Program-made: the position numbers and the translations under genes
Notes under the pieces: generated by a model
Seen by the model: the letters and a program-made list of their open reading frames with translations, nothing else
Told to the model about the DNA's origin: nothing
Databases searched by the model: none
Assembly: GCA_003144275.1 (NCBI GenBank)
Contig: NJBF01000007.1
Coordinates: 1-32,000 of the forward strand
Reading direction: 5' to 3'
Source of the DNA: Candidatus Heimdallarchaeota archaeon B3_Heim
Lineage (GTDB): Archaea; Asgardarchaeota; Heimdallarchaeia; Hodarchaeales; Hodarchaeaceae
DNA: 32,000 bases
Part shown: positions 4,915-31,495 of the stretch, piece by piece
Position numbering within the stretch: the stretch's first letter is position 1
How the letters are laid out: the number at the start of each line of letters is the position of its first letter

Positions 4915-4954
4915 TCACCCTAATTCCAGATTACTACTTGGATTGATGATCATT

Positions 4955-6431: not shown

Positions 6432-7562
6432 TCAGCCTGTTTCTCTCCCATAATTCTCAGTAAGAACACTATTTCGTATTTGTTTAAATTCCCCAAGATA
6501 TTTAGACGGAGGATCATTAAGATTCCATTTTCTTAGATCGATTTGCTTTCTAAGAGAAATCATTCGATATTGAGTTAAGTTAATCTGAAAAAAGTATACT
6601 GAACGACGGAATGATCTAAATAATTGTTTAATTCTTGAACTGGAAATGTTCCCGATAGATCTCTTGAGGTAGAAATTCATTCCTTGATCTATGACGTTAT
6701 TTGATTCTTGGTCACTTATCCCACCTTCTTGGCTTAGGTGTTTCACAAGACAATTTTTGAATTTTCCATAATAATAATTATAGGTGCCGTCTTTAATTGG
6801 TTTAATAACCCCCGCATATTTCGAATACAAAACCTTCGTGGTAGGGACGGATTCACGAGCACCATAAAATATGTCTAAAGTTTTAATCTTGCCATAGATT
6901 ATGGTTAGCATGTCAAGCAATAATTCACCAAAACTTGCTGCGAAGTTTAATTCTTTTATATACGGTAGCGATTCTTTTTGAATCATTCTTAGGAAATTTG
7001 TTTCATGAACATAATACAAGGTTGGAATGTAGAATGATAAATGACTAATTAAACGAGATTTAGGATCAGATGAAGTAAGTGATGCATATGCCTTAATTTG
7101 GTTAATAGAGGAAAGATATTCCTTCCAATAAAACTTCTTTTTATTTGATCTGTTAACCTTCGTTAAAAACGATAGATAATAACCACCAACCGCTGTATAA
7201 TCTGAATTCTTTTCTAAAAAAGCGATACTTTGATCCAACGCTTTAGGTGTGATATAATCATCATCTGCACATAGTACGGTGTATTTCATATCAAGAAAAT
7301 CTACTGTCTGGGCAATTTTATGATAAAAATTAGTTTCAGATGAAAACTGATCAAGATGATTTATTCTCAATTTTGAGAAAGTGGAGATTATTTTTTCATT
7401 ACTTGCTTTTATTTCATCAGAACTCGAATCTGGTACTAATATTTCATAATTTACATTTTGCTTATCAAAATAGGTGAGAAGGCGCTGAAGATGACTAGGC
7501 CTATTGTATGTGGGAATAACAAGAGATAAATTATTTGCACTGCTCAACCATGAAACCTTCAA
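6432..7562 (-). CDS. GT2-like glycosyltransferase (resembles TIGR00180 family)
   Basis: LVIPTYNRP N-terminus and CADDDY DxD motif; this type is commonly seen in nonulosonate clusters. Confidence 0.7.
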   Translation of the reverse strand: MKVSWLSSANNLSLVIPTYNRPSHLQRLLTYFDKQNVNYEILVPDSSSDEIKASNEKIISTFSKLRINHLDQFSSETNFYHKIAQTVDFLDMKYTVLCADDDYITPKALDQSIAFLEKNSDYTAVGGYYLSFLTKVNRSNKKKFYWKEYLSSINQIKAYASLTSSDPKSRLISHLSFYIPTLYYVHETNFLRMIQKESLPYIKELNFAASFGELLLDMLTIIYGKIKTLDIFYGARESVPTTKVLYSKYAGVIKPIKDGTYNYYYGKFKNCLVKHLSQEGGISDQESNNVIDQGMNFYLKRSIGNISSSRIKQLFRSFRRSVYFFQINLTQYRMISLRKQIDLRKWNLNDPPSKYLGEFKQIRNSVLTENYGRETG

Positions 7563-7711: not shown

Positions 7712-8770
7712 GTGAAATTATTGTTAGAAAAATTTTTCATTGAAGATTTTGAAATTGGAGGAGATAGAACTTTTATCATTGCAGAAGGTGGCGTTAATCA
7801 TAATGGTAACATCGATATAGCCAAGGATTTGATTGATGAAGCTGTAAAATCCAAAGTTGATGCAATTAAGTTCCAAACATTTGTAACAGAAGAGTTGGTC
7901 ACAAGTTATGCTCCTAAAGCAAAATATCAAGAAATTAATACTGCAAAGAATGAATCCCAGTATGAAATGATTAAAAAACTTGAATTATCTTTCGAGAGCT
8001 TCCAAGAATTGAAAAGCTATGCTGACAACAAGGGAATATTGTTTTTTTCTACTCCTTTTGATCTTAAAAGTGCTGAATTCCTAAGTAAGATAAGTTTACC
8101 AGCCTTTAAGGTAGGATCAGGAGATATGAATAATGTTCTTCTATTGGAAAGAATAGCATTCGAAAAGAAACCAATTCTTCTTTCTACAGGCATGGCTACT
8201 CTTGAAGAAATAACAGAAATCTTTGAATTCTTGAAACAAGAGAGAGTCATTAAATTATTACTATTTCATTGTATCACAAGCTACCCTGCATCAGTAAGTA
8301 AATTGAATCTCAACATAATTTCAACACTCAAGAATCTGTTCAATGTTCCTATCGGTTACTCAGATCATAGTATTGGAATAGAAATTCCTCAATTAGCGGT
8401 GGCTGCAGGAGCAAAAGCTATTGAAAAGCATTTCACACTTGATAAGAATCTTCCAGGACCTGACCATAAAGCTTCTCTTGAACCAGAGGAGTTGAAAGAG
8501 ATGGTTAATAGGATTAGATTTACTGAAAAAGTCCTTGGAAGTTCAACAAAACAGATAGACGAAGTAGAAAAACAGAATCGTGTTGTTGCCAGAAAAAGTA
8601 TTGTTGCAATGCGGAACATTCCAAAAGGGGCAATTTTATCAAAAGAAGACCTAGGAGTAAAACGACCTGGCAATGGATTACCTCCTGTTAAAATACTTCA
8701 TTTAATTGGAAAAGAAACTAAAGTTTCAATAGATAAAGACGTTCAGCTGCGTTTAGATATGCTTCACTAA
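7712..8770 (+). CDS. neuB: Nonulosonate synthase (NeuB/LegI family) with C-terminal SAF domain
   Basis: IIAEGGVNHNG, IKFQTF, FSTPFD, KVGSGD, STGM, GYSDH, IEKHFTLD, GPDHKASL and KRPG motifs. Real start may be TTG 7721, 6 nt after AGGTG. Confidence 0.95.
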   Translation: MKLLLEKFFIEDFEIGGDRTFIIAEGGVNHNGNIDIAKDLIDEAVKSKVDAIKFQTFVTEELVTSYAPKAKYQEINTAKNESQYEMIKKLELSFESFQELKSYADNKGILFFSTPFDLKSAEFLSKISLPAFKVGSGDMNNVLLLERIAFEKKPILLSTGMATLEEITEIFEFLKQERVIKLLLFHCITSYPASVSKLNLNIISTLKNLFNVPIGYSDHSIGIEIPQLAVAAGAKAIEKHFTLDKNLPGPDHKASLEPEELKEMVNRIRFTEKVLGSSTKQIDEVEKQNRVVARKSIVAMRNIPKGAILSKEDLGVKRPGNGLPPVKILHLIGKETKVSIDKDVQLRLDMLH

Positions 8771-8787
8771 TATTTACCATAATAATC

Positions 8788-9978
8788 ATGGAAAAGGGAT
8801 TAGAATTGAGAAAAGTCGCTGTAATCACGGGAACACGAGCAGAATATGGATTATTAAAGCCAGTTATCCAAAAAATCATTGAAGACTCTGATTTAGAGTT
8901 AGATTTAATCGTTACAGGTACCCATTTGTCAGAGGAATTTGGATATACAATTAACGACATTGTACAGGATAAGATTCCAGTAACAGCGAAAATCAAAGCT
9001 TATCCGCTGACAGATGATGGATATGCAATGGCTAAAGCCATTAGTAGATTATTGGATAAATTGATTGATGAATTAGCGCAAAACAGACCAGATTTCATCT
9101 TGATTCTTGGGGATAGAGGAGAACCACTTGCTGCTGCAATAGCAGGGACCTATTCAAATATCCCTGTGGCCCACATACATGGAGGAGAAGTTTCGGGAAG
9201 TGTTGATGAACCAGTACGTCATGCAATATCTAAATTAGCTCATATCCATCTTCCTGCAACACAATCAGCCGCAGAAAGACTAATAAAAATGGGAGAATCG
9301 GAAAATAGAGTTTTCATTACAGGAGCTCCTGGTTTAGATTCCATCCTTCATGAAAATTTTCTCACAAGAGACGCCTTAGCAGAAAAAATTGGTTTAGATC
9401 CATCTAAAAACTTTATAGTTGTACTACAACATGCTGTTACAACGAAATATACACCGAAGGAATCAGCGGATCAAATAAAAATCACATTGCAGGCAGTAGC
9501 TCGCTTAAATTCACAAAACGTTGTTATTTATCCTAATTCAGATGCAGGAGGGCGAGAAATGATTCAGGAGATAGAAAAAATTGCGAAAGAACCCAATTTC
9601 CACGTGTTTAAGAATTTACCCTCAATGCTGTACAGAAGTTTATTAAAGCACGCCACTCTTTTGATTGGAAATTCGAGTAGTGGAATTATTGAAGCTCCAT
9701 CTTATAATCTTCCAGTAATAAATATCGGTTCACGTCAAAACAAAAGAGAAAGAGCAGGTAACGTAATTACCGTAGATTATGATGAGCAGGAGATATATGA
9801 TCTAGCTACTCGGATATTGACTGATCAGAAGTTCAGACAATCTTTAGAAGATGTAATAAATCCATATGGAGATGGAACCGCAGCTGAAAAAATAGTAGAA
9901 GTACTTACAGCAGTTGAGATTACTCCGGAATTTCTACAAAAAACAATGACCTATTCATTTCATTTTTTGGTGTTTTAA
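8788..9978 (+). CDS. neuC: Hydrolysing UDP-N-acetylhexosamine 2-epimerase (NeuC/LegG family)
   Basis: TGTRAEYGLL, LGDRGE, HIHGGEVSGSVDE, GNSSSGIIEAP, NIGSRQ and NPYGDG motifs. Confidence 0.93.
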   Translation: MEKGLELRKVAVITGTRAEYGLLKPVIQKIIEDSDLELDLIVTGTHLSEEFGYTINDIVQDKIPVTAKIKAYPLTDDGYAMAKAISRLLDKLIDELAQNRPDFILILGDRGEPLAAAIAGTYSNIPVAHIHGGEVSGSVDEPVRHAISKLAHIHLPATQSAAERLIKMGESENRVFITGAPGLDSILHENFLTRDALAEKIGLDPSKNFIVVLQHAVTTKYTPKESADQIKITLQAVARLNSQNVVIYPNSDAGGREMIQEIEKIAKEPNFHVFKNLPSMLYRSLLKHATLLIGNSSSGIIEAPSYNLPVINIGSRQNKRERAGNVITVDYDEQEIYDLATRILTDQKFRQSLEDVINPYGDGTAAEKIVEVLTAVEITPEFLQKTMTYSFHFLVF

Positions 9979-11648
9979 TGACCTTAGTTGACTTCCAAGA
10001 ACGTCTTATCTGGAATAAATTGGAGATTGGCAAGAATTTACTTGAATTAACTACTTATGAGGGGATTTCCTTCTGGTGGAATATCGACCATCTTTTCTAT
10101 CACTTCTTATTATCCACCCTAGAGAGTAATGGAAAAGTCCCTAGTGTAACTAGAAGGAATTTCCTTACCGTTAGACTATTTGGAACGAGAATAGGATTAT
10201 TAATTTTCTTAATACTTGATATCCTTTTATTTTTGTTCGGTAAACTAATCATTTTAATTGCTAAGGTAAGTAAAAACGAAAAAAAATTAGACTATAGAAA
10301 AAAACCTATTTTCCTTGTTATTAGCTATGATGCAGCTTGGGTTGCAACACCTAGTTATTTATCTGGATTAATAAGAAAGTCAGATCATCTTAAAGACTCT
10401 GTGATGGAGACACTTCAGCACAAAGCAGATTTTTTGGGAACTTCATCATTTCGATACCGCAAAGCAAGCTTTAAAATTGCACTAGAACGATCCCTTTTCT
10501 GGAATCATTCTTATAACTTACTGAACGTATACTGGTCACCAAAGAGCTGGTTAAAACAGGTTTATGCTTTTAACTTCTTTAAAAGAAAATTGAAAATGAT
10601 AAAAAATGATTCTAAATTTCGTAAACAATGTCAACAAAATAATAACGATTTCTACGACATTCTTATTCAGGAATTTGATTATTATTTTTGTTTCTTATTA
10701 CCACTTTGCGTCAGCTGGGTAGAGACATTCACATCTCTAATTGACAAAATAAAACCCTCTCTTGCACTTATCTCAAATGAAACTGGACATTCGGAAAAGA
10801 GTCTGATTATTGCTTCAAAAAAACATAAGGTTCCTGTATTAGCAATGCAACATGGGGTTATTGACCCCACAAATCGTGGATATATTTTTTCTAAAAAGGA
10901 TATTAGTAAAAGTGGATCAATTCACTCACCATATAATCCAATTACTGATAGAACCGCAGTATTTGGTACTAAGTACAAGAATTTCATTGATAAAAACAGT
11001 AATTTCCCTGAAGGCAGTGTGGTAGTAACTGGCAACCCAAAATTTGATAAATTATTTCAAATGGTTAACAAATTTAAAAATCGGGGCCATATTCGACGTT
11101 GGTTGAACATTCCAGAGGATAAACCCATTCTGCTCTGGACCACACAAACGCATTGGCTTTCTACCGAAGAAAACCGTAAGAACGTTGATGCAGTCTATTC
11201 TGCTCTGGAAGAATTGAATGATGACATTACACTAATTGTGAAACTTCATCCTAATGAGGACCAAAGAGCTCCTTTTTATCAAGAAGATTCTCGCATTAAA
11301 CCTATCTATCTGGGAAAAGAAGTTGATATCCTCCAACTGATTTACGTTTCAAATATTATATTAACGAAACACTCAATGACGGCAACCGAAGCTGTTGCAC
11401 TTGACAAACCTGTTATAATTTTAAATCTCAGTGGAAATCCAGATATTATTGACTGCGTTGATGAAGGAGTAGCTGTTGGAGTTTATAAGAAAGATGATCT
11501 AAAACAAGCTATCCTTTCACTACTAGTTGATGATTCTAGAATCGCTAAAAATCGGTCTCGATATGTGGAAGCTGAATACTATTTAATTGACGGAAAATCT
11601 TCAGAAAGAATGGCCCGTCTGATGGAATCAATGATCAAAAAAAATTAA
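9978..11648 (+). CDS. GT-B fold protein, candidate nonulosonate transferase (CDP-glycerol glycerophosphotransferase-like C-terminal domain)
   Basis: MQHG, VTGNPKFD, VKLHPNE, STATEA-like SMTATEA and DGKSSER motifs; start overlaps the neuC stop. Confidence 0.6.
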   Translation: MTLVDFQERLIWNKLEIGKNLLELTTYEGISFWWNIDHLFYHFLLSTLESNGKVPSVTRRNFLTVRLFGTRIGLLIFLILDILLFLFGKLIILIAKVSKNEKKLDYRKKPIFLVISYDAAWVATPSYLSGLIRKSDHLKDSVMETLQHKADFLGTSSFRYRKASFKIALERSLFWNHSYNLLNVYWSPKSWLKQVYAFNFFKRKLKMIKNDSKFRKQCQQNNNDFYDILIQEFDYYFCFLLPLCVSWVETFTSLIDKIKPSLALISNETGHSEKSLIIASKKHKVPVLAMQHGVIDPTNRGYIFSKKDISKSGSIHSPYNPITDRTAVFGTKYKNFIDKNSNFPEGSVVVTGNPKFDKLFQMVNKFKNRGHIRRWLNIPEDKPILLWTTQTHWLSTEENRKNVDAVYSALEELNDDITLIVKLHPNEDQRAPFYQEDSRIKPIYLGKEVDILQLIYVSNIILTKHSMTATEAVALDKPVIILNLSGNPDIIDCVDEGVAVGVYKKDDLKQAILSLLVDDSRIAKNRSRYVEAEYYLIDGKSSERMARLMESMIKKN

Positions 11649-11663
11649 GAAAAATAGCTGATA

Positions 11664-12854
11664 GTGAATTCAATGGGAAATAATTCAATTATCTTCTTGG
11701 CGACATATGCTTACTTAGCAATTCCTCAGTACCTCTCAATAACTCCTAACCTAACAAATTACACAAAAATATTGTTTAACACAAGAGATCTACTCTCTAC
11801 GAAATACGACAGCAAATTTATTACCCAAGACATTAAAAAGAATTATTTTGATGATTTTTTTGAACTAAAAGATTTTTCTTTCAATGTAAAAGGTCCATGG
11901 AAAAAGTATCAAGCTTTCAGAAGATGGAAACGAGCAATAATCTTATATATGAACCAGATTTTCCCCCAAGTCGTTGTTAGCTGTTCAGATCAGTCAATGA
12001 CTGATAAAATTATCAGTTCTTGGTGTAAAAAGAATAAAAAAGCATTCATTGTCTTGCAACCCTCGTTTATTAGTGGGATGCATTATAAAAAATATGGAAT
12101 CAGTCACAAAATTAGGTATCTCATTTTTAATAAACTTTTAAATCTGCCTAGGTATCGTAAACAGCATTTATTTGGTAATGAAGAACATTGGACTCACTTA
12201 CTTCTTTGGAGTCAGTATTTTATTGAAGATCCTAAAAGACCGAACATGTATTTCGTTGGCAATCCTGCTTTTGATGTGCTTTTTAGTCAATTTACTAGCA
12301 AACGAACACTGAAAAACAATGTTTTAATATGTACACAAAATATTAAGGCAATGGTGGGAAAAGAAGCGTTTGATCAAGTTATCGATATGTACATTCAAGC
12401 AATTAATGCAAAACCTGATCTTACATTCTACATCAAAGTCCATCCAAGAGAATCAATTGAGAAGTATGAATTATTATTCCCCAAAGACCATTTTCCAAAT
12501 GCTAAAGTGGTTCAAGAGGATAACTTGTATGATCTCTTCAGAATTAGTGATGTTCAGATATCAGTATCTTCTTATACTTCCTTTGAAGCAGTAGCAACGG
12601 GATTACCAATTATTATTGTGAATCCTAATAATATGTTCGATTTTATTGATCATTTTAGGCAAGAAATAGAGATAAAGGTTACAGATCTGGAGAAAATCGC
12701 AAAGGCTATTGATTTAGCTAGGTCTGAACATTATTGGATGGAGTTTGTCAAAAAGAGGGAAAAATATTTTGACTATATGGTCCATTCCACTGATGGAAAG
12801 AGCGGAAAGCGAGCTGCAGAGAAAATGGAAGAGATTATCAATTTTAGTGGATAA
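11664..12854 (+). CDS. GT-B fold protein, second candidate nonulosonate transferase
   Basis: VGNPAFD, IKVHPRE, SYTSFEA and DGKSGKR motifs, similar to the C-terminal half of the upstream ORF. Confidence 0.55.
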   Translation: MNSMGNNSIIFLATYAYLAIPQYLSITPNLTNYTKILFNTRDLLSTKYDSKFITQDIKKNYFDDFFELKDFSFNVKGPWKKYQAFRRWKRAIILYMNQIFPQVVVSCSDQSMTDKIISSWCKKNKKAFIVLQPSFISGMHYKKYGISHKIRYLIFNKLLNLPRYRKQHLFGNEEHWTHLLLWSQYFIEDPKRPNMYFVGNPAFDVLFSQFTSKRTLKNNVLICTQNIKAMVGKEAFDQVIDMYIQAINAKPDLTFYIKVHPRESIEKYELLFPKDHFPNAKVVQEDNLYDLFRISDVQISVSSYTSFEAVATGLPIIIVNPNNMFDFIDHFRQEIEIKVTDLEKIAKAIDLARSEHYWMEFVKKREKYFDYMVHSTDGKSGKRAAEKMEEIINFSG

Positions 12855-12909
12855 TGTGTCAATTATAAAATATGTTATCTGTTAAACAAACAATTATGGA
12901 CGTTAAAAA

Positions 12910-13662
12910 ATGAAAACAGGATTTCTAATAACTGCACGAATGAAATCAACTAGACTACCCAAGAAATTGACCCTAAAAATCAATGATCGTGAAATAATTG
13001 CCTGGTTGATTGATAGATTGAAACAATGCCAGAACTTGAACGAAATTGTAATAACCACCTCTTCAAATCCACAAGATAAAATACTCTGTCAGATAGCAAA
13101 ACGGGAGAATGTTAAATGTTTTGAAGGGAGTGAAATTGATGTTCTTGAACGATTATACATGGCTGCAAAAAAATATGAATTAGATTATATTATTAATATT
13201 ACTGGTGATTGTCCTTTAGTTTCTTTCGATTTTATTGACCAAATTCTAGCAGCATATGAAAAAACCAATGCTGATCTAATTACGACGTTTAAATTACCCC
13301 ATGGCTTCTATATTTATGGGATAAAGATCTCTGCATTAGAAAAAGTGTTAGAAATTAAAAATGAGGTTGATACTGAAATTTGGGGAGCATATTTCACCGA
13401 AACAGGACTATTCAATGTTGTAGATTTAGATATTCCTTCTGATTTGCACCGGAAAGACTATCGCTTAACCCTTGATTATCCAGAGGATTTTGATTTCTTC
13501 AAAGCTATTTTTGCGGGGCTTGGAAGAGACACATTTAAGAAATCGACAAAAGAGATTATCGAATTCCTAGATACTCATCCTGAAATTGTACATCTCAACT
13601 CGCATTGCGAAGAGCTTTATCAAAAACGATATGATCAGCAAAGGAAATTAGAGCTAAAATGA
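12910..13662 (+). CDS. spsF: Cytidylyltransferase, SpsF/NeuA-like (CMP-nonulosonate synthetase candidate)
   Basis: TARMKSTRLPKK, GSEIDVLER, ITGDCP and RLTLDYPED motifs. Confidence 0.8.
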   Translation: MKTGFLITARMKSTRLPKKLTLKINDREIIAWLIDRLKQCQNLNEIVITTSSNPQDKILCQIAKRENVKCFEGSEIDVLERLYMAAKKYELDYIINITGDCPLVSFDFIDQILAAYEKTNADLITTFKLPHGFYIYGIKISALEKVLEIKNEVDTEIWGAYFTETGLFNVVDLDIPSDLHRKDYRLTLDYPEDFDFFKAIFAGLGRDTFKKSTKEIIEFLDTHPEIVHLNSHCEELYQKRYDQQRKLELK

Positions 13663-14642
13663 AGATTGGAATCATAGGTTTAGGATCAATTGGTCGACGA
13701 CATGCACGATGCCTTCACAAAATTGGAGTTACCGACATTGTTGCCTTAAGAACAGGGAAGGGTACGAAAAAGGAACTATCTGAAGACCTAAAAAACATTA
13801 AAGAAGTTTTTGATAGAGAGGATTTCTATTCTTTGAACCTAGATGGACTTATTATTTCAAATCCCACATCATTTCATGTAGAGTCTATGAAAACTGCTTT
13901 AGAATATGAAATCCCAATTTTGATTGAAAAACCGATAGCCTCATCCCTAGAATCGATTGAAAAATTAAAAATTCATGATTTATCTAAAATTTTGGTAGGT
14001 TACTGTCTTCGATATGATGAAATAATAAATGTGGTAAAAGAGTTCATTGATTCCAACAGATTGGGGAGAATTTTCAAAGCTCACCTTTTTTGTGGACAGT
14101 ATCTACCTTTATGGCACCCATATGCTGAATATAGAACAGAATATTATTCCCGTAAGGATTTAGGGGGTGGAGCCCTTCGTACGCTTTCTCACGAGATTGA
14201 CCTGATGCATTATTTTTTTGGTAATGTTGACGAACTCTTTGCTAGCGTAGAGAAACTTTCTAACTTAGAAATCGATGTAGATGATAATGTTCACATTTTT
14301 TGCAGGATGAAAGGGGGTTCAAGGATTCATGTTGAATTAGATTACCTAAACCCGACATATCAGAGAACAGGAAGAATTCTAGGCGAGGTAGGAGAATTAA
14401 CATATTCCTTTTCAAATAAGAAGGTATCTTTTACTGATTTTAAAGGTAAAACAGAAATAGTCTACGAAAATCTTGTGTTAGATCCAAATGGAATGTATCT
14501 CAACCAAATTAAAGACTTTATCAATTTAATTAAAGACCAAGTCAGAGTTCGTTGCACATTTAATGATGGGGTAGAAGTGATGAAAATTATTAAAACTTCC
14601 GAAGATTCATCGCGATTGAAATCGTGGCAAAAAATTGAGTAG
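13659..14642 (+). CDS. Gfo/Idh/MocA-family NAD(P)-dependent oxidoreductase
   Basis: IGLGSIGRRH, IEKP, GGGALRTLSHEID and LDYL motifs; 4-nt overlap with the upstream gene. Confidence 0.88.
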   Translation: MKIGIIGLGSIGRRHARCLHKIGVTDIVALRTGKGTKKELSEDLKNIKEVFDREDFYSLNLDGLIISNPTSFHVESMKTALEYEIPILIEKPIASSLESIEKLKIHDLSKILVGYCLRYDEIINVVKEFIDSNRLGRIFKAHLFCGQYLPLWHPYAEYRTEYYSRKDLGGGALRTLSHEIDLMHYFFGNVDELFASVEKLSNLEIDVDDNVHIFCRMKGGSRIHVELDYLNPTYQRTGRILGEVGELTYSFSNKKVSFTDFKGKTEIVYENLVLDPNGMYLNQIKDFINLIKDQVRVRCTFNDGVEVMKIIKTSEDSSRLKSWQKIE

Positions 14643-14650
14643 GGTTAATT

Positions 14651-15478
14651 ATGAGAGATCTGTTTAATTTAGATTCAAAAGTCGCAGTAGTAATTGGTGG
14701 TAATGGGTATTTAGGAATTGAATTTTGTAAAACTTTATTAGAATATGGAGCAGTGGTCTATTGCTGTGATGCAAGTATTCAAGAATCAGAAGAAACAAAC
14801 GCAATTAAGAAGAAATTTCCTGATAAATTTAAGATGATAAAAACTGATGCGACTAATAAAGAAAGTCTTGAAACCCTGAGAAATGATATATTAGGAACAG
14901 AAAAAACGGTTGATATCCTGGTCAACACAGCAACAATGAAAGGTAATGATTTCTACTTACCTTTCGAAGAAGTCTCACTGGAAGGATGGAATATTGGTAT
15001 TTTGGGAAATCTAACCATACCATTTCTAACAATACAAACATTCATTCCTTTGATGAAAACACAGAGAAAAGGCTCTATTATTAACATTTCCTCGCACTAT
15101 GGAATAGTTGGAAATGATCAACGGATCTATGTTGGTAGCAATTTACACGAACTCTATGTGAAGGACTCCCCTAACATTGAACAAGTATACTCACATGGAG
15201 TTTATAATGCTTCAAAAGGTGGGATTATTAACTTCACCCGATATCTAGCCGCTTATTATGGTGAGTACAACATTCGAGTGAATTGTATCTCACCAGGAGG
15301 AATTCATTATGAGGATGAGAATGAGACTTTTGTACAAAAGTATTCAGAGAAAGTCCCACTTGCAAGAAAAGCCAGGAAAGCCGAAATCAATGGAGCGCTG
15401 ATCTTTCTAGCATCTAATGCATCTTCATATGTTACTGGTCATAATCTTGTTGTAGATGGGGGATTTACAATCTGGTGA
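14651..15478 (+). CDS. SDR-family oxidoreductase (PtmA-like)
   Basis: GGNGYLG Rossmann motif, ISSHYG, YNASK catalytic YxxxK, RVNCISPGG and VDGGFT. Confidence 0.88.
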   Translation: MRDLFNLDSKVAVVIGGNGYLGIEFCKTLLEYGAVVYCCDASIQESEETNAIKKKFPDKFKMIKTDATNKESLETLRNDILGTEKTVDILVNTATMKGNDFYLPFEEVSLEGWNIGILGNLTIPFLTIQTFIPLMKTQRKGSIINISSHYGIVGNDQRIYVGSNLHELYVKDSPNIEQVYSHGVYNASKGGIINFTRYLAAYYGEYNIRVNCISPGGIHYEDENETFVQKYSEKVPLARKARKAEINGALIFLASNASSYVTGHNLVVDGGFTIW

Positions 15479-15645
15479 TAATCTTCTTAGCCAGAAATTA
15501 CAGAAGTAAAAATGCTGGGCTATATCACATTTCAAACTGAATTAACTATTCAATCTTCTTCTCAAAATCACAACACATCAATTATAATATAGTTTAGATA
15601 ATTTGAAATCATTGAATTTACCCTCTGGAACATGGAAGAAAAAAC

Positions 15646-16755
15646 ATGAGATATTGTAAAAAATGCGTAATGCCTGACACAAGGCCTTACATGAAATTTA
15701 ATGAAGAAGGGGTTTGTTATCCCTGTATCCATTATGAAAACAGGAAAAATGTTGATTGGGACGCAAGATGGAAAGAGTTAGAAGCTCTTGCTGACAAACA
15801 TCGCGGTCGGAATGGGAACTATTACGATGTTATTATAACTGCCAGTGGTGGTAAAGATAGTCATTACCAAGTAGATGTATTTAAAGAAAAATTGAACATG
15901 AATCCTTTGTTGGTGTCTATTGATAACTTTAGCTGGACCAAAACTGGTCGAGAAAACTACGAGAATTTGGGGGATAGATACGGTGTGGATATTCACCTGA
16001 TTACCTTAAATCGTAAGGTTGCCAGAAGAATGCTCAGTAAGGGTCTTGATAAAGGTCTTTATCCAACATGGATATGGGATAGAGCAGTCTATGCTTATCC
16101 CTTACAAATGGCCATTAAATTAAACATTCCCCTAGTTATTTGGGGTGAAAATACAGCCTATGAACGCGGAGGCCCTATACTTGAGGACACTCCTGATGCA
16201 ATGGTTCAATTGAAGAATGATGTTGTTAAACCGATTCCATTAGAAGAATGGGTAGATGAGGAAATTACCTTGAAAGATTTAAATCCCATTATCTATCCAT
16301 CAATGGAGGAAATTGAAAAAGCGGGAGTTGAAGCTAGATTTTTGAGTTATTATGATCCTTGGAGTGACCATGGACATTACGAATACGCCATCAAGAACGG
16401 TTGGAAGACATTGGAGGAAGAATGGGTACGAGAGGGGCTTCCAGGCTTGCATTACTTACAAGTTGATACCATTGGATATCTTGTCCATAATTGGGTTAAA
16501 TTCGTGAAAATGGGTCATTGGGCTTTGACAGATTACTGTAGTTTAGATATTCGTGAAGGAAGAATGACCCGGGAAGAAGCCGTGAAGCTAATCAATCAGG
16601 AAGAGTATAAATTGGACCCAAAAATGCTCAAGGATTTTCTAGATTTTACAGGTGTTTCTGAAGAAAGATTTTGGGCTCTTGTTGATAAATTTGCCAATAA
16701 AGATATTGTTGAGAAGCGCAACGGTATATGGAGATTAAAACAACCTCTGATGTAG
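15646..16755 (+). CDS. N-acetyl sugar amidotransferase (WbuX/PseA-like, PP-loop)
   Basis: MRYCKKCVMPDTRP start, SGGKDS PP-loop, WGEN and DIREGRMTREEA. Confidence 0.85.
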   Translation: MRYCKKCVMPDTRPYMKFNEEGVCYPCIHYENRKNVDWDARWKELEALADKHRGRNGNYYDVIITASGGKDSHYQVDVFKEKLNMNPLLVSIDNFSWTKTGRENYENLGDRYGVDIHLITLNRKVARRMLSKGLDKGLYPTWIWDRAVYAYPLQMAIKLNIPLVIWGENTAYERGGPILEDTPDAMVQLKNDVVKPIPLEEWVDEEITLKDLNPIIYPSMEEIEKAGVEARFLSYYDPWSDHGHYEYAIKNGWKTLEEEWVREGLPGLHYLQVDTIGYLVHNWVKFVKMGHWALTDYCSLDIREGRMTREEAVKLINQEEYKLDPKMLKDFLDFTGVSEERFWALVDKFANKDIVEKRNGIWRLKQPLM

Positions 16756-16814
16756 GTTTACTTCCCTCTCCCTTATTTTTCTCTCTTTCTAATATTTCAG
16801 TAAAGACTATTTTC

Positions 16815-17900
16815 TTATTTGAATTCCAGTTGTATTCCCAAGAGATCTTGAATTACTTCTTGAATTAACACCTTTATTTGTTCTTTAGTCAAGATTGAAG
16901 CATTTTCTGATGAGTATAACGCTTCATTATTTTTTGGTTCTATCTTGACTGCTAGATTATCATAATAATTTATCAGATTTTCAACTAATTCAGGATGATA
17001 AAAGGGATTATTGGGAACTAAAATGAAGATCTTGTCCTTTTTGTAGATGTTTGAAGTTTGCGTTTCATAATCGCTTAATAATTCCTCGTATTTCTTTTCT
17101 CCAATGCGATCTCCAATAGTCTTGATCTGTATTTCTTTTGGCTCGAGTTTAAAATATGGAGCTACAACTTCAATCATAGCTTCAACTAGGTCGCCTGTAT
17201 AGATCGCTGGCATTTCTAGAATGAAAATCTCTCCACCTTTCGCAAATGTTGCTGTGTTTAAAACCAGACTGACGGCCTCTTCCATTTTCATAATGAATCG
17301 AGTCATTTTGGGATCAGTAACTGTAACTGGTTCTCCTTTTTGTATCTGCTTGAAAAAAATTGGGATAACCGAACCTCGTGAACCTAGCACATTCCCAAAT
17401 CGAACGGCAGAAAAGGAAATGTCTTTTAAACCAACATATAAATTGGCTGCAATGGTTAGCCTTTCCGCGAGTAGTTTAGTAGCACCCATAACATTTGTAG
17501 GGTTAATAGCTTTATCTGTACTAATAGTAATGAATTTCTTCACATTATTGGTCAGTGAAGCTTGGATTAGATTTTGTGTACCTACTATATTTGTTTTTAT
17601 TGCCTCAAATGGGTTATACTCGCATAAAGGAACATGTTTCAATGCACCAGCATGGAAAACTATATCTACATTTTCTAAAGCAAATTTCACTCTTTTCGAA
17701 TCACGAATATCTCCAATAAGTACTCTTAATCTTTCTGATTCAATCAGCTGGTCTAAATAGAACAAACCAGTTTCATCTATATCTAAAGCTCTAACTACTT
17801 CTGCTTCTAGGTTAATAAGCTGCCTTACGAGTTCTTTTCCAATCGATCCTGCAGCTCCAGTTACTAAAACGGTTTTATCTTTAAAGTAATCAGTATCCAC
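16815..17900 (-). CDS. UDP-N-acetylglucosamine 4,6-dehydratase (CapD/PglF/PseB-like)
   Basis: TGAAGSIG, KHVPLCEYNP, STDKA, MGATK, RFGNVLGSRGSV and MTRF motifs; AGGTG 7 nt before the GTG start. Confidence 0.9.
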   Translation of the reverse strand: MDTDYFKDKTVLVTGAAGSIGKELVRQLINLEAEVVRALDIDETGLFYLDQLIESERLRVLIGDIRDSKRVKFALENVDIVFHAGALKHVPLCEYNPFEAIKTNIVGTQNLIQASLTNNVKKFITISTDKAINPTNVMGATKLLAERLTIAANLYVGLKDISFSAVRFGNVLGSRGSVIPIFFKQIQKGEPVTVTDPKMTRFIMKMEEAVSLVLNTATFAKGGEIFILEMPAIYTGDLVEAMIEVVAPYFKLEPKEIQIKTIGDRIGEKKYEELLSDYETQTSNIYKKDKIFILVPNNPFYHPELVENLINYYDNLAVKIEPKNNEALYSSENASILTKEQIKVLIQEVIQDLLGIQLEFK

Positions 17901-17911
17901 TTGTCTTCACC

Positions 17912-19045
17912 TTATTTTTTTGATTCAAAAAATTCATAGATTTTCTTAATGACATATTCTTGTTCTTCTTGAGTCATCGTTGGATAAATCGGTATGCTCA
18001 GTATTTCCTGAGAAATATTCTCGGTTACGGGTAGATGTATGCTATACTTCATTTGTTCTTTGTAGAAGTAAGTGAGGTGGATAGGAAAGAAATATACTTT
18101 AGAAGAAATTCCATTTCGCTTAAGAAAATCTACAAGTTCATCTCGAAAACCATGTTTAATTCTGATGGAAAACAGTTGAAACACATGCCTTCCATCTGGA
18201 GGTGTAAAAGGGAGTATAAGTCCGTCTATCCCTTTTAATTTTTTAATGTAGTTATTTGCAACCCTTAAACGTTTTTTAATAATTGTTTCTACCTTTTCTA
18301 TCTGTGAAACTCCTAAGGATGCATTAATATTAGATAAACGTAAATTATACCCAAGTTTCACATAATTACTAGAAAAAGCGTCTGTAAAATAACCTTTGTC
18401 ATCTTTTCTCCCATGGGATCGTATAAGCAATAATTTTTCATAGATTTCTTTGGAATCGGTGACAATAGCTCCACCTTCTCCAGTCGAGATTACTTTGTTT
18501 TGACAAAAACTCAGCATTCCACTATGACCAAAAGATCCTGTCATTTGGTCTCCTAGCTTTGCCCCAAAAGATTCTGCAGCATCTTCAATGAGTATTAGAT
18601 TATGATCAGTAGCAATTTCTTTTAAGGCACGAATTTGAGCAGGGCAACCTCCATAATGGACTGGCATAATTAATTTTGTTTTTGAAGAAATCTTTTCTTT
18701 TACATCTTCAGGAGCTAACCCCAATGTTTTTTCTTCGATATCAGCAAATATAGGTTTTCCCTGCACGAATAATGGTGCATTAGCAGTAGCAATAAACGTC
18801 AAAGAAGGTACTATTACCTCATCATTTTTTCGAACATCATAAGCAACCATAATGGCATGCAATGCGGACGTTCCTGAATTAAAGACAGCACAATAACGAG
18901 TTCCGATGTACTCAGCAATCTTCTGTTCAAATGTACTTACTTCTGAACCAATTGCCCAATTCATCCCAGATGTAATGACTTTTTTTATTGCCTCAACATC
19001 TTGGTCATCGGAATAGATCTTGAATAGAGGTACATTGGGTGCCAT
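17912..19045 (-). CDS. DegT/DnrJ/EryC1/StrS PLP-dependent sugar aminotransferase (PglE/LegC-like)
   Basis: NSGTSALH, EDAAESFG, SFCQNKVISTGEGG (PLP lysine) and GYNLRL motifs. Confidence 0.92.
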   Translation of the reverse strand: MAPNVPLFKIYSDDQDVEAIKKVITSGMNWAIGSEVSTFEQKIAEYIGTRYCAVFNSGTSALHAIMVAYDVRKNDEVIVPSLTFIATANAPLFVQGKPIFADIEEKTLGLAPEDVKEKISSKTKLIMPVHYGGCPAQIRALKEIATDHNLILIEDAAESFGAKLGDQMTGSFGHSGMLSFCQNKVISTGEGGAIVTDSKEIYEKLLLIRSHGRKDDKGYFTDAFSSNYVKLGYNLRLSNINASLGVSQIEKVETIIKKRLRVANNYIKKLKGIDGLILPFTPPDGRHVFQLFSIRIKHGFRDELVDFLKRNGISSKVYFFPIHLTYFYKEQMKYSIHLPVTENISQEILSIPIYPTMTQEEQEYVIKKIYEFFESKK

Positions 19046-19107
19046 TTTCTCAATACCTACCGTAGAATTTCAATTCTGTTTCTGTTATCTATCTTTATAT
19101 TTTATTG

Positions 19108-19575
19108 TTAAAATCCTTCTGTCTCTGCTTCCATATTTTCTATTTCTTCCTGAGACAAATTCCTCTTTACCTCAACTGGAACACCAAACGCGACAACATT
19201 ACTTGATACATCTTTGTTCACCAGGCTGAATGCTCCAATTATTGTATTTTCCCCTATTGTTACGCCTGGCATTACAAGAGAATGGCTCCCTATTCTGGCG
19301 TTTCTTTTAATTTCTACTTTTCCAGATTTCCCATCGATAGTCGATTCGGAATAGATAGAACAATGAGAACCGACCTGGACAAAATCTTCGATTTCTACAC
19401 CAAATTTAGCATTGATATAGGTAAAAGCGCCTAAATCTGTATATTTTCCTAATTTGAGTGTGTCTGGATATTGAACTAACCAATTCCATTGTGTTAATTG
19501 TCCATGTTGAATTTCAGGGGTCTTCCAATCTTTGAAGTTTTCTCTTTTCATTAACTTGTAACCATCCTGAATCAT
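19108..19575 (-). CDS. Hexapeptide-repeat (left-handed beta-helix) acyltransferase
   Basis: Repeating [LIV]Gxxxx pattern (IGSHSLVMPGVTIGENTIIGAFSLV); upstream of the aminotransferase. Confidence 0.85.
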   Translation of the reverse strand: MIQDGYKLMKRENFKDWKTPEIQHGQLTQWNWLVQYPDTLKLGKYTDLGAFTYINAKFGVEIEDFVQVGSHCSIYSESTIDGKSGKVEIKRNARIGSHSLVMPGVTIGENTIIGAFSLVNKDVSSNVVAFGVPVEVKRNLSQEEIENMEAETEGF

Positions 19576-19783
19576 AAAATTCCAGAGAGACTAATCAGTA
19601 TGAACTACGGCTCATTCACAAGAATGATAGTGCAAATAACCAATCATGAGAGCCTATTTAGAACTTCGACTAATACTTTTTGTCTTGAAGAATATTACTT
19701 CAAATAAATATAGTTTGGTACACTTTTAACTAAATTAATGAATACGTACATGAATATGTCTTAAATGTGGAGAACTGATACTA

Positions 19784-20872
19784 TTGCAAATTAATGATCC
19801 TAAAAGGAATATTCCGTATATAATTGGCGAAACAGCCTATAATCATGAAGGTGATATCAATTATTTATTTAGAATGATTGATGAGATAGCAGAGTTACAA
19901 TTAAATGCTGTAAAGTTTCATTTATTACTAAATTTAGAAAGTTATATTCAAAAAAATCATCCACTCATTGCAACTTTAAAAAAATGGATTTTTAATCAGT
20001 CCCAATGGGATGAAATTATCGATTATTCTATTGAAAAAGGGTTGGACGTCATTGCTCTTTGTGATGATGTTGAAAGTTGTGAATATCTTATAAATACTGG
20101 AAAAAAGATCGATTCGCTCGAACTACATCCAGTAAGCATTAATGATCACTTCTTGCTGGATTCTATTTCAAATTTCGATGGTCGAATCATTCTCGGAGTG
20201 GGAGGGGCATCCTTAGAGGAAATACGATATGCAATAGATTTTCTGACGAATCGAGGGAGGAATAACATTCTCTTGATGTTTGGCTTCCAGAGCTATCCTA
20301 CAAATTATCAAGAAATAAATTTATCAAAAATGATTAAAATTAGAGATCTTTTCGATCTTCCAGTTGGATATGCAGATCATACAGCGTACAATGACCCTGA
20401 TAATACGTTTATTAGTATTTTAGGGGCTGCCATGGGCTTTGAAATTCTTGAAAAGCATTATACTCTCAATGTCGGACAGGAGAGAATTGATTATCATGCA
20501 GCGATTGGGAAGAAACAGATGAAAGAGATAAATCGATTAATGAAGCTCGTTCTAGATGTGTACGGGATTGGATCAATAGAAATGAGTAAAGCAGAGCTAA
20601 ATTATGGGAATATTGGGCCTATGAAGAAAGCTATCGTGGCAAAAACGGATATTTCTAAGGGAACACAATTATCTCTTGATAATTTATGGTTTAAAAGAAC
20701 TCAAGAGGAGAGCTACATTGAACAAAATCAATTTCTTAAATTATTAGGATTAGAAACCACTGTTAATATTAATAGTGATGAGATAATAGATTATTCTAAG
20801 ATCAAATATCAGTTTCAGAAGATGAGTGAAAAGGACTTTACAAATATAGGTAAGAATGAAGAGAAAGATTAA
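19784..20872 (+). CDS. Divergent NeuB/SpsE-family synthase paralogue with SAF domain
   Basis: IIGETAYNHEGD, KFH, SYP, GYADHT, LEKHYT and FKRT motifs; several canonical motifs altered. Confidence 0.8.
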   Translation: MQINDPKRNIPYIIGETAYNHEGDINYLFRMIDEIAELQLNAVKFHLLLNLESYIQKNHPLIATLKKWIFNQSQWDEIIDYSIEKGLDVIALCDDVESCEYLINTGKKIDSLELHPVSINDHFLLDSISNFDGRIILGVGGASLEEIRYAIDFLTNRGRNNILLMFGFQSYPTNYQEINLSKMIKIRDLFDLPVGYADHTAYNDPDNTFISILGAAMGFEILEKHYTLNVGQERIDYHAAIGKKQMKEINRLMKLVLDVYGIGSIEMSKAELNYGNIGPMKKAIVAKTDISKGTQLSLDNLWFKRTQEESYIEQNQFLKLLGLETTVNINSDEIIDYSKIKYQFQKMSEKDFTNIGKNEEKD

Positions 20873-21375
20873 GTCTGTTTTCTCTGTTTTGGAGAAGAAA
20901 ATTCCCAGATATGATCACAGTAAGCACTCCCTGTTACGATCTCATGATTTCTAGAAAATTGAACGCCTGGGAGAACATTTTCCGTAAAAGTTTGATCTGA
21001 GATACAGTATGCATAGGCCAAGTCAGCTAATCCTTCATCGGTTAGAATTTCATAGAATGGACAGCGAGTGAATTTCACCTTCAAAATTGTTGATGCAGAC
21101 TCTATAATTTCACAATATGGTGTTTCGCTTGCAAATTGTACATATGACTCACGAAAACGATTAAAACGTTCTTGAGAACCAGGTTCGAAATCTGAGAGTA
21201 TGTTCCTGTAATAGGTGGTCATGAATTTGCCAAACGCATCTGAAGCCACCTTAAATGCCATTTCTTTGTTTAGATTTTCATTTATCGATGTTAAAAATGA
21301 AACAGTGGCTAAAGACTGCAGTTTTTTTTGCGTGTAAATTCGATCTTTTTGAGGCGATTTCCTGTTCTTTCTCAA
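20869..21375 (-). CDS. ATC-hydrolase-like / V4R-related Cys-containing protein
   Basis: FTRCPFYE...YCISD...FSRNHEIVTGSAYCDH pattern recalls the L-2-amino-thiazoline-4-carboxylate hydrolase-like family. Confidence 0.6.
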   Translation of the reverse strand: MRKNRKSPQKDRIYTQKKLQSLATVSFLTSINENLNKEMAFKVASDAFGKFMTTYYRNILSDFEPGSQERFNRFRESYVQFASETPYCEIIESASTILKVKFTRCPFYEILTDEGLADLAYAYCISDQTFTENVLPGVQFSRNHEIVTGSAYCDHIWEFSSPKQRKQT

Positions 21376-21413: not shown

Positions 21414-22280
21414 CTAAAAATGAAGAAAGAATTTCCAACCAAAATAAGCTCTAACCTCTTTGTCTTTTAATTTCCACTTCTCTTTCCGGGCACTCCAATA
21501 GCCCTTTAAAATTTTAATCCCATTAAATCCCGCAAGAATTGTTTTTAATAGCAATAGGATCGGATTGTAGCCAAAGTGGTATGTTAACCGTCCATTTCGA
21601 AATAAATCCTTCTTAGCAACTCTTGTAGTAGGTCGTTCTTGGATCATATAAACCTCTGATAGTTCACGAGCTTTCATTTTTCTTATTTTTGCCCGAGTAT
21701 TAATCCAAGTATCCCAATCAACCTCTGGGAAATATTCCGAAGGCGTTGACTCAAGGAGTGAGCTCCGGATGACTTTACCGGATCCCCGTGCATCTTTTCT
21801 GCCAAATTTCGCGCCAACATTAATTTGCTCTACATATTCGTTCAATTGATCCTTTACTACAATAATCCCCGACACACACCCTAAAGAAGGAGTGTTACCC
21901 ATTGTTGTAATGATTTTTTCATAATAATAAGGTTCTAGACGGGTGTCTGCATCAAGAGTCGCGACATAGTCATATCTTGCGGCTTTTGCTAATTCAAACC
22001 AAGCAGTATTAAATGTACGTCCAACCGTGTCCAAATTTGGTACTGTTTTTATTGATAATTGGAGCAATTTCAAATTTAAACTCGGATATTTGTTAATCAG
22101 TCTTTCAATTTCAACTCTAACGTTTGGATCAGGAGACCCATCATCAATAATTATCACTTCATCAGGTACTAAAGTCTGTTCTAATAATGATTTTACTAAT
22201 TCTTCCAACATTTCATACTCATTATAGACCTTTACGAATACACAGAATTTTGTACGCAAGCTCTGATCCTTTTCAATCAT
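21414..22280 (-). CDS. GT2-family glycosyltransferase
   Basis: VKVYNE, IIDDGSPD and LDADT motifs. Confidence 0.85.
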   Translation of the reverse strand: MIEKDQSLRTKFCVFVKVYNEYEMLEELVKSLLEQTLVPDEVIIIDDGSPDPNVRVEIERLINKYPSLNLKLLQLSIKTVPNLDTVGRTFNTAWFELAKAARYDYVATLDADTRLEPYYYEKIITTMGNTPSLGCVSGIIVVKDQLNEYVEQINVGAKFGRKDARGSGKVIRSSLLESTPSEYFPEVDWDTWINTRAKIRKMKARELSEVYMIQERPTTRVAKKDLFRNGRLTYHFGYNPILLLLKTILAGFNGIKILKGYWSARKEKWKLKDKEVRAYFGWKFFLHF

Positions 22281-22410
22281 GATTCTTACCTTTCAGGAAA
22301 TAACATCTTATGATTGCCCAATGCCACGATATTTAATACCTAATTCTTTAATTTTTTCACTATCCAATATGCCCTATATACCCTAACCCGATTATTGCTA
22401 CTTTTTTCAT

Positions 22411-23642: not shown

Positions 23643-23814
23643 CCGTTCTGAAAGACTTACCCAAATAAGACAGTTAAAAATAATTAGGAACAATTATTAC
23701 AAACCGTCCTTGGAGCTGTTCTTCCTGATTCATCGACGCGAGCCTGCTCAGATGCAGGTTTTACCACCTCTCCACAGGCGTTTAAGGTCTCCGCGGAACT
23801 CTCGGCGACCGGAA
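23643..23814 (-). ncRNA. Predicted TnpB omegaRNA scaffold A, overlapping the tnpB 3' end and element right end
   Basis: Known TnpB architecture places the omegaRNA over the 3' end and right end; hairpin CCTGC-N6-GCAGG at 23743-23758; ends ...TCTTTCAGAACGG. The 5' boundary is taken from the repeat limit. Confidence 0.6.
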
Positions 23815-28385: not shown

Positions 28386-28489
28386 TTTTGTTCTTGTAAT
28401 TTCCTTAATGGGAATTAAAACTAAAACATCTGAAGCCGTTTGCTACTCAACACCTATTATCTGTTGATTTGGGAGAATCGAATAGATTC

Positions 28490-29245: not shown

Positions 29246-29246
29246 T

Positions 29247-30179: not shown

Positions 30180-30267
30180 ATTGTCCCACTTTTATCACAA
30201 AGTCTTTACCTCATAAATTCCTAATGACATTTAACTTGATTGTATGAAGTACATTATCTGACCTGTA

Positions 30268-31383: not shown

Positions 31384-31495
31384 AAGTCAATGACTTTTAC
31401 AGATAATTTCATCCGTTTCCTTAAATATCTAAGTTCCATTTCACTCAATAACAAGATTTATCATGTCTATATTGATCATTGAGTGCGTAAGAACC

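Follow-up and report, generated by a model that had tools for sequence, protein, structure and literature searches.

A probable legionaminic-type nonulosonate pathway in a Hodarchaeota-related Asgard archaeon

The window analysed covers the initial 32 kb of contig C96 (NJBF01000007.1; 105 kb) of Candidatus Heimdallarchaeota archaeon B3_Heim. The genome is 3.95 Mb in size and 94% complete. The window carries a glycan island at ~2.7–23.4 kb (about 2686 to 23412). The island probably encodes a uridine diphosphate (UDP)-linked route to a cytidine monophosphate (CMP)-activated 5,7-diamino-3,5,7,9-tetradeoxy-nonulosonic acid of the legionaminic acid (Leg) family, intended for a cell-surface glycan of this Hodarchaeota-related Asgard archaeon. 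The product is probably acetamidino-modified and possibly epimerised by a trio of enzymes resembling ElaB, ElaA and ElaC. A first-pass annotation of positions 7712–20872 had proposed a modified Leg-type surface sugar. The proposal is supported by the phylogeny of the hydrolysing 2-epimerase NeuC and of the sugar aminotransferase, together with conserved gene linkage. The analysis establishes the identities of the genes, their arrangement in operons, their conserved linkage and the host lineage; substrates, order of steps, stereochemistry and final acceptor are inferred from the sequence.

Front-end operon, NeuC and NeuB1

Genes of the window were called with Pfam and NCBIfam profile scans, and operons were delimited by intergenic spacing (Table 1). 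Every enzyme class named by the first-pass annotation is recovered with a strong score. It also named a flippase; two flippase-like proteins are present, but both lie outside its interval (4886–6406 and 22411–23412). The plus-strand operon consists of neuB1, neuC, two GT-B glycosyltransferase genes (GTB1 and GTB2) and the genes of a cytidylyltransferase, a Gfo/Idh/MocA oxidoreductase (Gfo) and a short-chain dehydrogenase/reductase (SDR), with spacings of −4 to 55 nt; an amidotransferase gene follows the SDR gene after 167 nt. Convergent with the neuB1 operon is a minus-strand operon acetyltransferase-aminotransferase-dehydratase. The gene of a second NeuB-family protein, NeuB2, is divergent from the latter operon and separated from it by a 208-bp spacer. 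NeuB1, NeuC and the amidotransferase pass curated models above cut-off.

In the predicted route the dehydratase would 4,6-dehydrate UDP-N-acetylglucosamine (UDP-GlcNAc), the aminotransferase would aminate C4 and the acetyltransferase would N-acetylate the product, giving UDP-2,4-diacetamido-2,4,6-trideoxyhexose. NeuC would then take off UDP and epimerise C2. NeuB1 would condense the hexose with phosphoenolpyruvate (PEP), and the sole cytidylyltransferase of the genome would form the CMP-sugar.

The dehydratase, aminotransferase and N-acetyltransferase are all present as one operon, and the linkage of this front end to NeuC and NeuB1 of the window type is kept across phyla. Adjacency of the three genes is retained in four further loci (L022, L085–L087) and in same-genus loci, at 56–75% identity. 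Relatives of the acetyltransferase in the Protein Data Bank (PDB) include N-acetyltransferases of nucleotide-linked (NDP) aminosugars. The aminotransferase tree has three clades: PseC (support 97), LegC (support 99, including E. coli O161) and a window-type clade (support 100), in which 10/10 members stand beside NeuC and a NeuB1-type synthase. The NeuC of the window belongs to a clade of 16 members. A window-type aminotransferase occurs in the same locus in 11 of the 15 others, and three of the four loci that do not contain it are 5.7 kb or shorter. A separate NeuC clade of 25 members (support 95) holds E. coli anchors of both kinds, including the N-acetylneuraminic acid (Neu5Ac) type NeuCs of K1 and O145. 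The anchors were assigned by locus type (O161-family O-antigen locus, NT1F31 Leg-type locus, O145 and K1). Because the coupling is conserved across Asgard archaea, DPANN, the candidate phyla radiation (CPR), Chloroflexi and Bacteroidia, the front end is taken to feed NeuC and NeuB1, which points to a Leg-family 5,7-diamino sugar.

NeuB1 possesses all canonical motifs, with D at the E134 position. It is not a synthase of pseudaminic acid (Pse); a grouping with such synthases had been named by the first-pass annotation as contrary to its proposal. NeuB1 scores 288 bits with the PseI model (cut-off 340.25), and its K-V-G-S-G-D motif is Gly-type: the residue by which Pse synthases are recognised (PMC7371886) is Gly, not Phe. 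The position-184 rule of the same study fails on the E. coli anchors in the alignment and was not used. The first-pass annotation had also suggested placing NeuB and NeuC among the known clades. The NeuC clade is informative and linked to the front end. The NeuB tree cannot split Leg from Neu5Ac synthases and was rejected as a discriminator: those of E. coli K1 and O145 (Neu5Ac) and of O161 and NT1F31 (Leg-type) interleave within a single bacterial clade, and NeuB1 is placed elsewhere, in a small clade of Asgard sequences. The assignment to Leg is thus based on NeuC and aminotransferase phylogeny plus conserved linkage. The substitution E134D has been proposed as an archaeal/eukaryal trait (PMC8208679). 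It is not domain-specific in the set compared, where D is found in Paceibacterota and Bacteroidia and E in other Asgard genomes. A NeuB1-type synthase of an unclassified archaeon (L022:3285-5144, plus strand) is 619 aa long and has an extra domain of ~270 aa.

The following observations weigh against a Leg product. The NeuB tree leaves Leg and Neu5Ac synthases unseparated. Among solved structures, the dehydratase is closest to enzymes of inverting or ene-forming type (Pen, CapE, WbjB, PseB), not to PglF. In comparison with PDB structures it scores 265 bits with Pen, 225 with CapE, 218 with PseB and 196 with PglF, and is thus roughly equidistant from the last two. Model scores of the dehydratase are 290 bits for PseB (cut-off 408) and 79 for LegB. 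A PseB score of ~290 bits is likewise obtained for the true Pse-locus dehydratases of the genus, and this score was rejected as a discriminator of the two island types. The aminotransferase resembles neither LegC nor PglE; its scores are 301 bits for PseC (cut-off 423.5), the best NCBIfam match, and 253 for LegC (cut-off 420). None of the remaining proteins (cytidylyltransferase, Gfo, SDR and the two GT-B proteins) reaches the curated cut-off of a named equivalog.

The character of the dehydratase would by itself be a concern, but a CapE-like enzyme, SpsM of B. subtilis, starts a UDP-linked Leg pathway; SpsM loss is complemented by PglF, not by PseB (PMC7439481). The dehydratase of the window has the same triad as SpsM (T128-x9-M138-x3-K142). 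In the dehydratase tree it groups with the enzymes of two other genomes, G016 and G005 (support 99), and is separate from those linked to Pse in the same-genus genomes G007 and G004. The B. subtilis Sps system (SpsM/C/D/G/E/F; PMC7439481) shares with the window the UDP-GlcNAc start, a CapE/PseB-like Polysacc_synt_2 dehydratase with the T-x9-M-x3-K triad, a DegT aminotransferase, an acetyltransferase, a NeuB-family synthase and an SpsF-type cytidylyltransferase. It differs in that the window employs a NeuC-type hydrolysing 2-epimerase and adds the Gfo and SDR oxidoreductases, an amidotransferase, two GT-B proteins and NeuB2. The SpsE structure 1vli scores 188 bits with NeuB1; the other Sps proteins are likened by description.

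Activation, tailoring and transfer

The cytidylyltransferase is SpsF-like. It has no match to a NeuA, LegF or PseF equivalog; its best PDB match is 6oew ('cytidylyltransferase', 97 bits), and it is the only protein of the genome above the CTP_transf_3 cut-off. Its gene overlaps the Gfo gene by 4 nt, and the Gfo-SDR gap is 8 nt. The order cytidylyltransferase-Gfo-SDR is also found in G033, another Asgard genome, and in at least six metagenomic loci.

By class and size, the trio has counterparts in the Leg (ptm/nab) loci of Campylobacter, Plesiomonas and Vibrio (PMC4481668), which contain a cytidylyltransferase, a 326-aa oxidoreductase and an SDR of ~254 aa (250, 327 and 275 aa, respectively, in the window). 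A LegG/NeuC-type epimerase, a LegI/NeuB-type synthase and an acetamidino-making amidotransferase are also common to both. The ptm/nab loci have guanosine diphosphate (GDP)-linked front ends of LegB/LegC type and PtmE, whereas the dehydratase and aminotransferase of the window are of other types and its cytidylyltransferase is SpsF-like, not NeuA/LegF-like.

In A. baumannii KL49 the same three enzyme classes occur in the same order, cytidine triphosphate (CTP)-transferase, Gfo/Idh/MocA and SDR (ElaB-ElaA-ElaC); these enzymes activate Leg and epimerise C8 of CMP-Leg5,7Ac2 by oxidation and re-reduction (PMC13656337). The genes of the window are tightly coupled (−4 and 8 nt). The two trios are likened by class and gene order, not by sequence, and Leg-making organisms also have such trios. 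By analogy, the Gfo/Idh/MocA and SDR proteins (13659–15478) might oxidise and then re-reduce a hydroxyl group, an ElaA/ElaC-like epimerisation, with C8 as the hypothetical site. Because Plesiomonas and Campylobacter, which make Leg and not 8-epi-Leg, carry the LegF/PtmF/PtmA trio (PMC4481668), the trio is a marker of Leg-family loci and epimerisation is only hypothetical. The amidotransferase would turn an N-acetyl into an acetamidino group. Enzymes of PtmG type are described as making acetimidoyl from N-acetyl groups on Leg (bioRxiv 10.64898/2026.04.20.719630).

GTB1 and GTB2 are candidates for moving the sugar onto a lipid-linked glycan. GTB1 has an N-terminal hydrophobic membrane segment (residues 62–100) and carries both sialyltransferase motifs, HP (KLHPNED) and D-E-G (VDEGV). 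GTB2 is 42% identical to its G033 homolog and keeps HP (KVHPRES); D/E-D/E-G was not seen at the aligned site. Members of the BFO_1060 family of T. forsythia (Tanf_01245, TFUB4_00887, BFO_1060) are genetically validated transferases of Pse and Leg derivatives (PMC5420450). They share with the window proteins a TagB-like GT-B fold, the C-terminal half, the HP motif and a position inside a nonulosonic acid (NulO) locus. Alignment with BFO_1060 is confined to the C-terminal, CMP-binding half, and the scores of 87 and 80 bits fall well short of the family cut-off (200 bits). Different features of the window proteins are the unrelated N-terminal halves, the membrane anchor of GTB1 and the presence of two tandem copies. 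The GT2 glycosyltransferases, Wzx and AglB would build the glycan, flip it and attach it to surface proteins. An N-glycan is a plausible destination because AglB/STT3 is found elsewhere in the genome.

Table 1. Coordinates, strands and profile evidence of island features in the window (scores in bits).
Feature	Position	Strand	Evidence
Nonulosonate synthase NeuB1	7712-8770	+	NeuB 307; TIGR03569 433 vs cut-off 399.65
Hydrolysing UDP-sugar 2-epimerase, NeuC/LegG type	8788-9978	+	TIGR03568 439 vs cut-off 235.9
GTB1, membrane-anchored TagB/BFO_1060-like GT-B, candidate nonulosonate transferase	9978-11648	+	Glyphos_transf 56; BFO_1060_trans 87 vs 200
GTB2, soluble BFO_1060-like GT-B, second candidate transferase	11664-12854	+	BFO_1060_trans 80; TIGR04396 60
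Putative CMP-nonulosonate synthetase, SpsF-like cytidylyltransferase	12910-13662	+	CTP_transf_3 84 vs 22.6
Gfo/Idh/MocA oxidoreductase, ElaA/PtmF-like position	13659-14642	+	GFO_IDH_MocA N- and C-terminal domains
SDR oxidoreductase, ElaC/PtmA-like position	14651-15478	+	adh_short_C2 155; NF006619 (PRK09186) 161 vs 255
N-acetyl sugar amidotransferase, WbuX/PseA/PtmG type	15646-16755	+	TIGR03573 319 vs cut-off 203
UDP-GlcNAc 4,6-dehydratase, CapD/PseB/SpsM family	16815-17900	-	Polysacc_synt_2 342
Pyridoxal phosphate-dependent sugar C4-aminotransferase	17912-19045	-	DegT 355
Left-handed beta-helix (hexapeptide) N-acetyltransferase, 155 aa	19108-19575	-	Hexapep 52; NeuD/PglB/VioB subfamily 63, C-terminal half only
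NeuB2, divergent NeuB-family paralog	19784-20872	+	NeuB 105; TIGR03569 155, far under cut-off (~400)
Wzx-like flippase, ~12 hydrophobic segments	4886-6406	+	Polysacc_synt 71
GT2 glycosyltransferase	6432-7562	-	TIGR04440 164 vs cut-off 70; 45% identical homolog in G033 locus
GT2 and LPG_synthase_TM 'flippase-like' membrane protein (22411-23412), right edge of island	21414-23412	-	Glycos_transf_2 71; LPG_synthase_TM 141; TIGR00374 91
Candidate surface (glyco)protein, 742 aa	2686-4914	+	N-terminal hydrophobic signal; C-terminal transmembrane segment 714-738

NeuB2 and alternative products

NeuB2 is not a decaying duplicate. Its family comprises 710 proteins at E ≤ 1e-10 (60–66% identity; bacteria and archaea, among them Methanobacterium paludis) and forms a separate clade of the NeuB tree (support 99). 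No characterised member was found. In 121 members, with N. meningitidis numbering, the residues of the core and the ligands of the metal (E25, K53, H215, E234, H236, D247 and R314) are kept. The nearly invariant substitutions in the same members concern residues around PEP and are K129 to E (100%), STGM to G(I/V)GG (100%), S213 to A (100%), Q55 to H (99%) and GPD to RID (100%). NeuB2 belongs to the nonulosonate system. The cytidylyltransferase stands directly after NeuB2 in 16/18 metagenomic loci with enough flanking sequence; the set of metagenomic loci includes near-duplicates. The NeuB2-cytidylyltransferase operon goes on to Gfo and SDR in at least six of these loci, as in G033, and 11 of the metagenomic NeuB2 loci also hold a NeuB1-type synthase and NeuC. 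The module, with or without Gfo and SDR, is part of such putative Leg clusters in Asgard and other archaea, Chloroflexi and candidate phyla. The window has a rearranged version, in which NeuB2 is shifted beside the front-end operon.

A 584-aa open reading frame of Dehalococcoidales (L024:1321-3075, plus strand) fuses a NeuB2-type domain to a cytidylyltransferase. Fusions of NeuB with a cytidylyltransferase exist generally (Atlas). Long fused NeuB2 forms were rejected as a common pattern, the Dehalococcoidales protein being the one case. A third NeuB-like clade is present in the same-genus genomes G011, G014 and G009 (L068:4934-5821, L072:2005-2913, L077:9408-10316). Its proteins are 295–302 aa long and have a K-I-P-S-(A/P)-Q motif and no SAF domain; Gfo- and SDR-like genes occur in the same loci.

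Tentatively, NeuB2 may represent a widespread subfamily that retains the metal and acid-base core of NeuB, has an altered PEP-phosphate pocket and carries out new nonulosonate chemistry, either a PEP-independent aldol/retro-aldol reaction, e.g., C4 epimerisation, or use of a different donor, leading to an undescribed derivative; such chemistry is possible, at less than even probability. Production of two CMP-ulosonic acids by the island is rather unlikely; NeuB1 and NeuB2 would then be synthases acting on different aldoses and sharing one cytidylyltransferase. Such a system has precedents, as more than one NulO synthase and more than one NulO product are known from both Leptospira and C. jejuni (PMC3438082; PMC7371886), and it is consistent with retention by NeuB2 of the metal ligands, E25, K53, D247 and the SAF-domain Arg and with the position of NeuB2 directly upstream of the cytidylyltransferase in metagenomic loci. 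However, residues around PEP in the N. meningitidis enzyme are invariantly replaced in the NeuB2 family (K129 to E, S154/T155 to G-I/V, S213 to A), and canonical PEP condensation by NeuB2 is doubtful for this reason. The window contains no second hydrolysing epimerase or other aldose-supplying enzyme.

Two independent pathways are quite unlikely. NeuC, NeuB1 and the cytidylyltransferase would produce CMP-Neu5Ac from UDP-GlcNAc, and the front-end operon would produce a bacillosamine-like UDP-sugar for another residue of the glycan. Such a division is compatible with the NeuB tree, with the scores of NeuB1 and NeuC above the curated 'N-acetylneuraminate synthase' and NeuC models and with the location of the front end in a separate operon on the opposite strand. 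Against it, the window-type NeuC and aminotransferase clades co-occur across all five groups listed above, NeuC and NeuB1 accompany each of the ten members of the aminotransferase clade at its locus, and the Neu5Ac-type NeuCs of E. coli are placed in the other NeuC clade. The LegF/PtmF/PtmA-like trio and a PtmG-like amidotransferase are known from Leg and Pse loci, not from Neu5Ac loci (PMC4481668).

Judged from sequence, Pse or another L-configured isomer is a very unlikely product. It would be formed if the PseB/CapE/Pen-like dehydratase inverts C5, and the best matches of the dehydratase (PseB in NCBIfam; Pen, CapE, WbjB and PseB among structures) and of the aminotransferase (PseC) are in line with this. 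However, the cut-offs of PseI and PseC are failed by the window proteins and passed by proteins of the same-genus genomes G004 and G007 (472–510 and 493–501 bits, respectively). A NeuC-type epimerase is present instead of PseG, and no match to PseG (TIGR03590) was found in the 94%-complete genome. Gly stands at the Pse-discriminating position of NeuB1, and a CapE-like enzyme can serve a Leg pathway, as SpsM does. A single UDP-linked route to a Leg-family sugar is the preferred reading.

Host lineage, surroundings and significance

The Asgard assignment holds, by archaeal ribosomal RNA, eukaryotic signature proteins and consistency at the level of the contig. The 16S rRNA of the genome scores 1400 bits with the archaeal model vs 1092 with the bacterial model. 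Its signature proteins include an actin (441 bits), the ESCRT-III products of two tandem Snf7 genes, both exceeding the Pfam cut-off, and 51 GTPases of Arf/Ras type; contig C96 itself carries one of the GTPases (Arf-family). Identity of cofD (window positions 29247–30179) falls with kinship: 98% in one same-genus genome, 57–60% in the remaining genomes of the genus, 45–49% in the order and 38–45% in the class. The closest genome, G013, matches window positions 29,056–32,000 at 97%. Absence of the island from G013 was considered as turnover and rejected: its contig begins at window position 29,056 and is missing cofC too, which indicates an assembly gap. Contig C493 of the same-genus genome G012 is the reverse complement of JAEOTY010000087.1 of 'Candidatus Hodarchaeota archaeon YT5_056', placed by NCBI taxonomy within Promethearchaeati. 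The best matches of island proteins are in metagenome-assembled genomes (MAGs) of Hodarchaeota/Hodarchaeales or in closely related metagenome sequences: NeuB1 and NeuC 71–73% (NeuB1 71% with a Ca. Hodarchaeota protein), Wzx 62% and NeuB2 77–91%. The Wzx homolog adjoins NeuB and NeuC in a Hodarchaeota contig.

That the contig is a mis-binned bacterial fragment, a case raised by the first-pass annotation, is extremely improbable: its first open reading frame is a UvrD/PcrA-type helicase fragment and the nearest non-Asgard relatives of NeuB are bacterial (52–56%), but it is 105 kb long, its GC content is 0.357 vs 0.361 for the genome, it carries the Arf-family GTPase, cofD follows kinship, G013 shares the stretch noted above at 97%, NeuB1, NeuC, Wzx and NeuB2 find their best matches in Hodarchaeota/Hodarchaeales MAGs (62–91%), and a single contig of G011 holds both cofD and, ~16 kb away, the NulO genes.

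NeuC above the curated cut-off occurs in 12/151 sampled Asgard genomes of at least five families, and the trait is patchy but recurrent. NeuB homologs are found in 12/21 same-genus genomes at 33–71% identity. The distance from island to cofD is ~16 kb in G011 vs ~21 kb in the window. Two same-genus loci, L075 (G007:C52) and L076 (G004:C55), have the true Pse-type sets mentioned above and lack NeuC; because of these, the genus is considered to alternate between Pse-type and NeuC/NeuB-type islands. The full gene set recurs in rearranged form in G033 (cytidylyltransferase 67%, Gfo 57%, SDR 73%, amidotransferase 69%). Identities to G033 are 57–73% for these four vs 43–48% for NeuB1, NeuC, aminotransferase and dehydratase, and the relation is reversed within the genus. 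The contrast is a mosaic pattern typical of surface-glycan loci. Relatives of the pathway are scattered over CPR, Chloroflexi, other bacteria and DPANN.

At the left end of the window the helicase fragment (3–1178, plus strand) covers profile positions 171–530 of 725, and its 5' end is cut by the contig start. It overlaps a convergent SIS-domain gene (869–1474, minus strand) by 310 nt and may be a truncated remnant at the left edge of the island. Genes on the minus strand at 869–2479 and 26089–27156 encode a SIS_2 (GmhA-like) protein, a GHMP kinase (HddA 158 bits, under cut-off) and a ManC-like nucleotidyltransferase. The set could be part of a GDP-heptose pathway feeding the same glycan. The 742-aa protein contains 20% Ser+Thr and 7 N-X-S/T sequons and has a weak match to TSP3 repeats only. 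Its gene and the start of wzx overlap by 29 nt. The protein may be a glycoprotein of the surface or a factor in glycan assembly. A 168-aa ATC_hydrolase-domain protein (20869–21375, minus strand) has a tail-to-tail 4-nt overlap with the NeuB2 stop; no homolog was found in any NulO locus compared. A TnpB/IS605 OrfB element (23684–24964, minus strand) forms the right boundary, between the island and the ManC-like gene. Dozens of full and partial TnpB copies (68–92% identity) are present on many contigs of G013. The genes cofC, a Dus-like flavoenzyme gene and cofD follow in a row at 27777–30179 (minus strand).

Archaeal NeuB genes have been surveyed before (PMC8208679), and Leg in archaea is established for Halorubrum (PMC6137143). 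Halorubrum sp. PV6 provides an archaeal precedent, with clustered LegB, C, H, G, I and F homologs and Leg in an N-linked surface glycan. By description, it differs in being a haloarchaeon, in a formyl modification and in having no reported set of Gfo, SDR, amidotransferase and NeuB2. The literature library searched gave no paper on nonulosonates in Asgard archaea. As a surface-sugar pathway the island is of a kind to be expected, here in a new lineage, and it is a recognisable, uncharacterised variant of known Leg-type clusters. Relevance to sialic-acid evolution, which the first-pass annotation had anticipated, is weak: the route is a diamino route of bacterial type, is found in few Asgard genomes and has relatives scattered in bacteria and DPANN. 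In a comparison set without eukaryotic synthases (NANS), nothing pointed to a link with the sialic acid of eukaryotes.

A complete, tailored nonulosonate surface-sugar pathway is now placed in Hodarchaeota-related Asgard archaea. Alternation of Pse-type and NeuC/NeuB-type islands within the genus resembles that of bacterial pathogens. Glycoproteomics of Asgard cell surfaces, which are important for virus recognition and contact between cells in this lineage, gains defined targets from these genes. The cluster type is distinguished by its conserved NeuB2 module, a cytidylyltransferase resembling SpsF and an aminotransferase from a third clade, and its enzymes are open to direct testing in vitro. 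The NeuB2 module is the most novel element of the island and the part most worth experiment.

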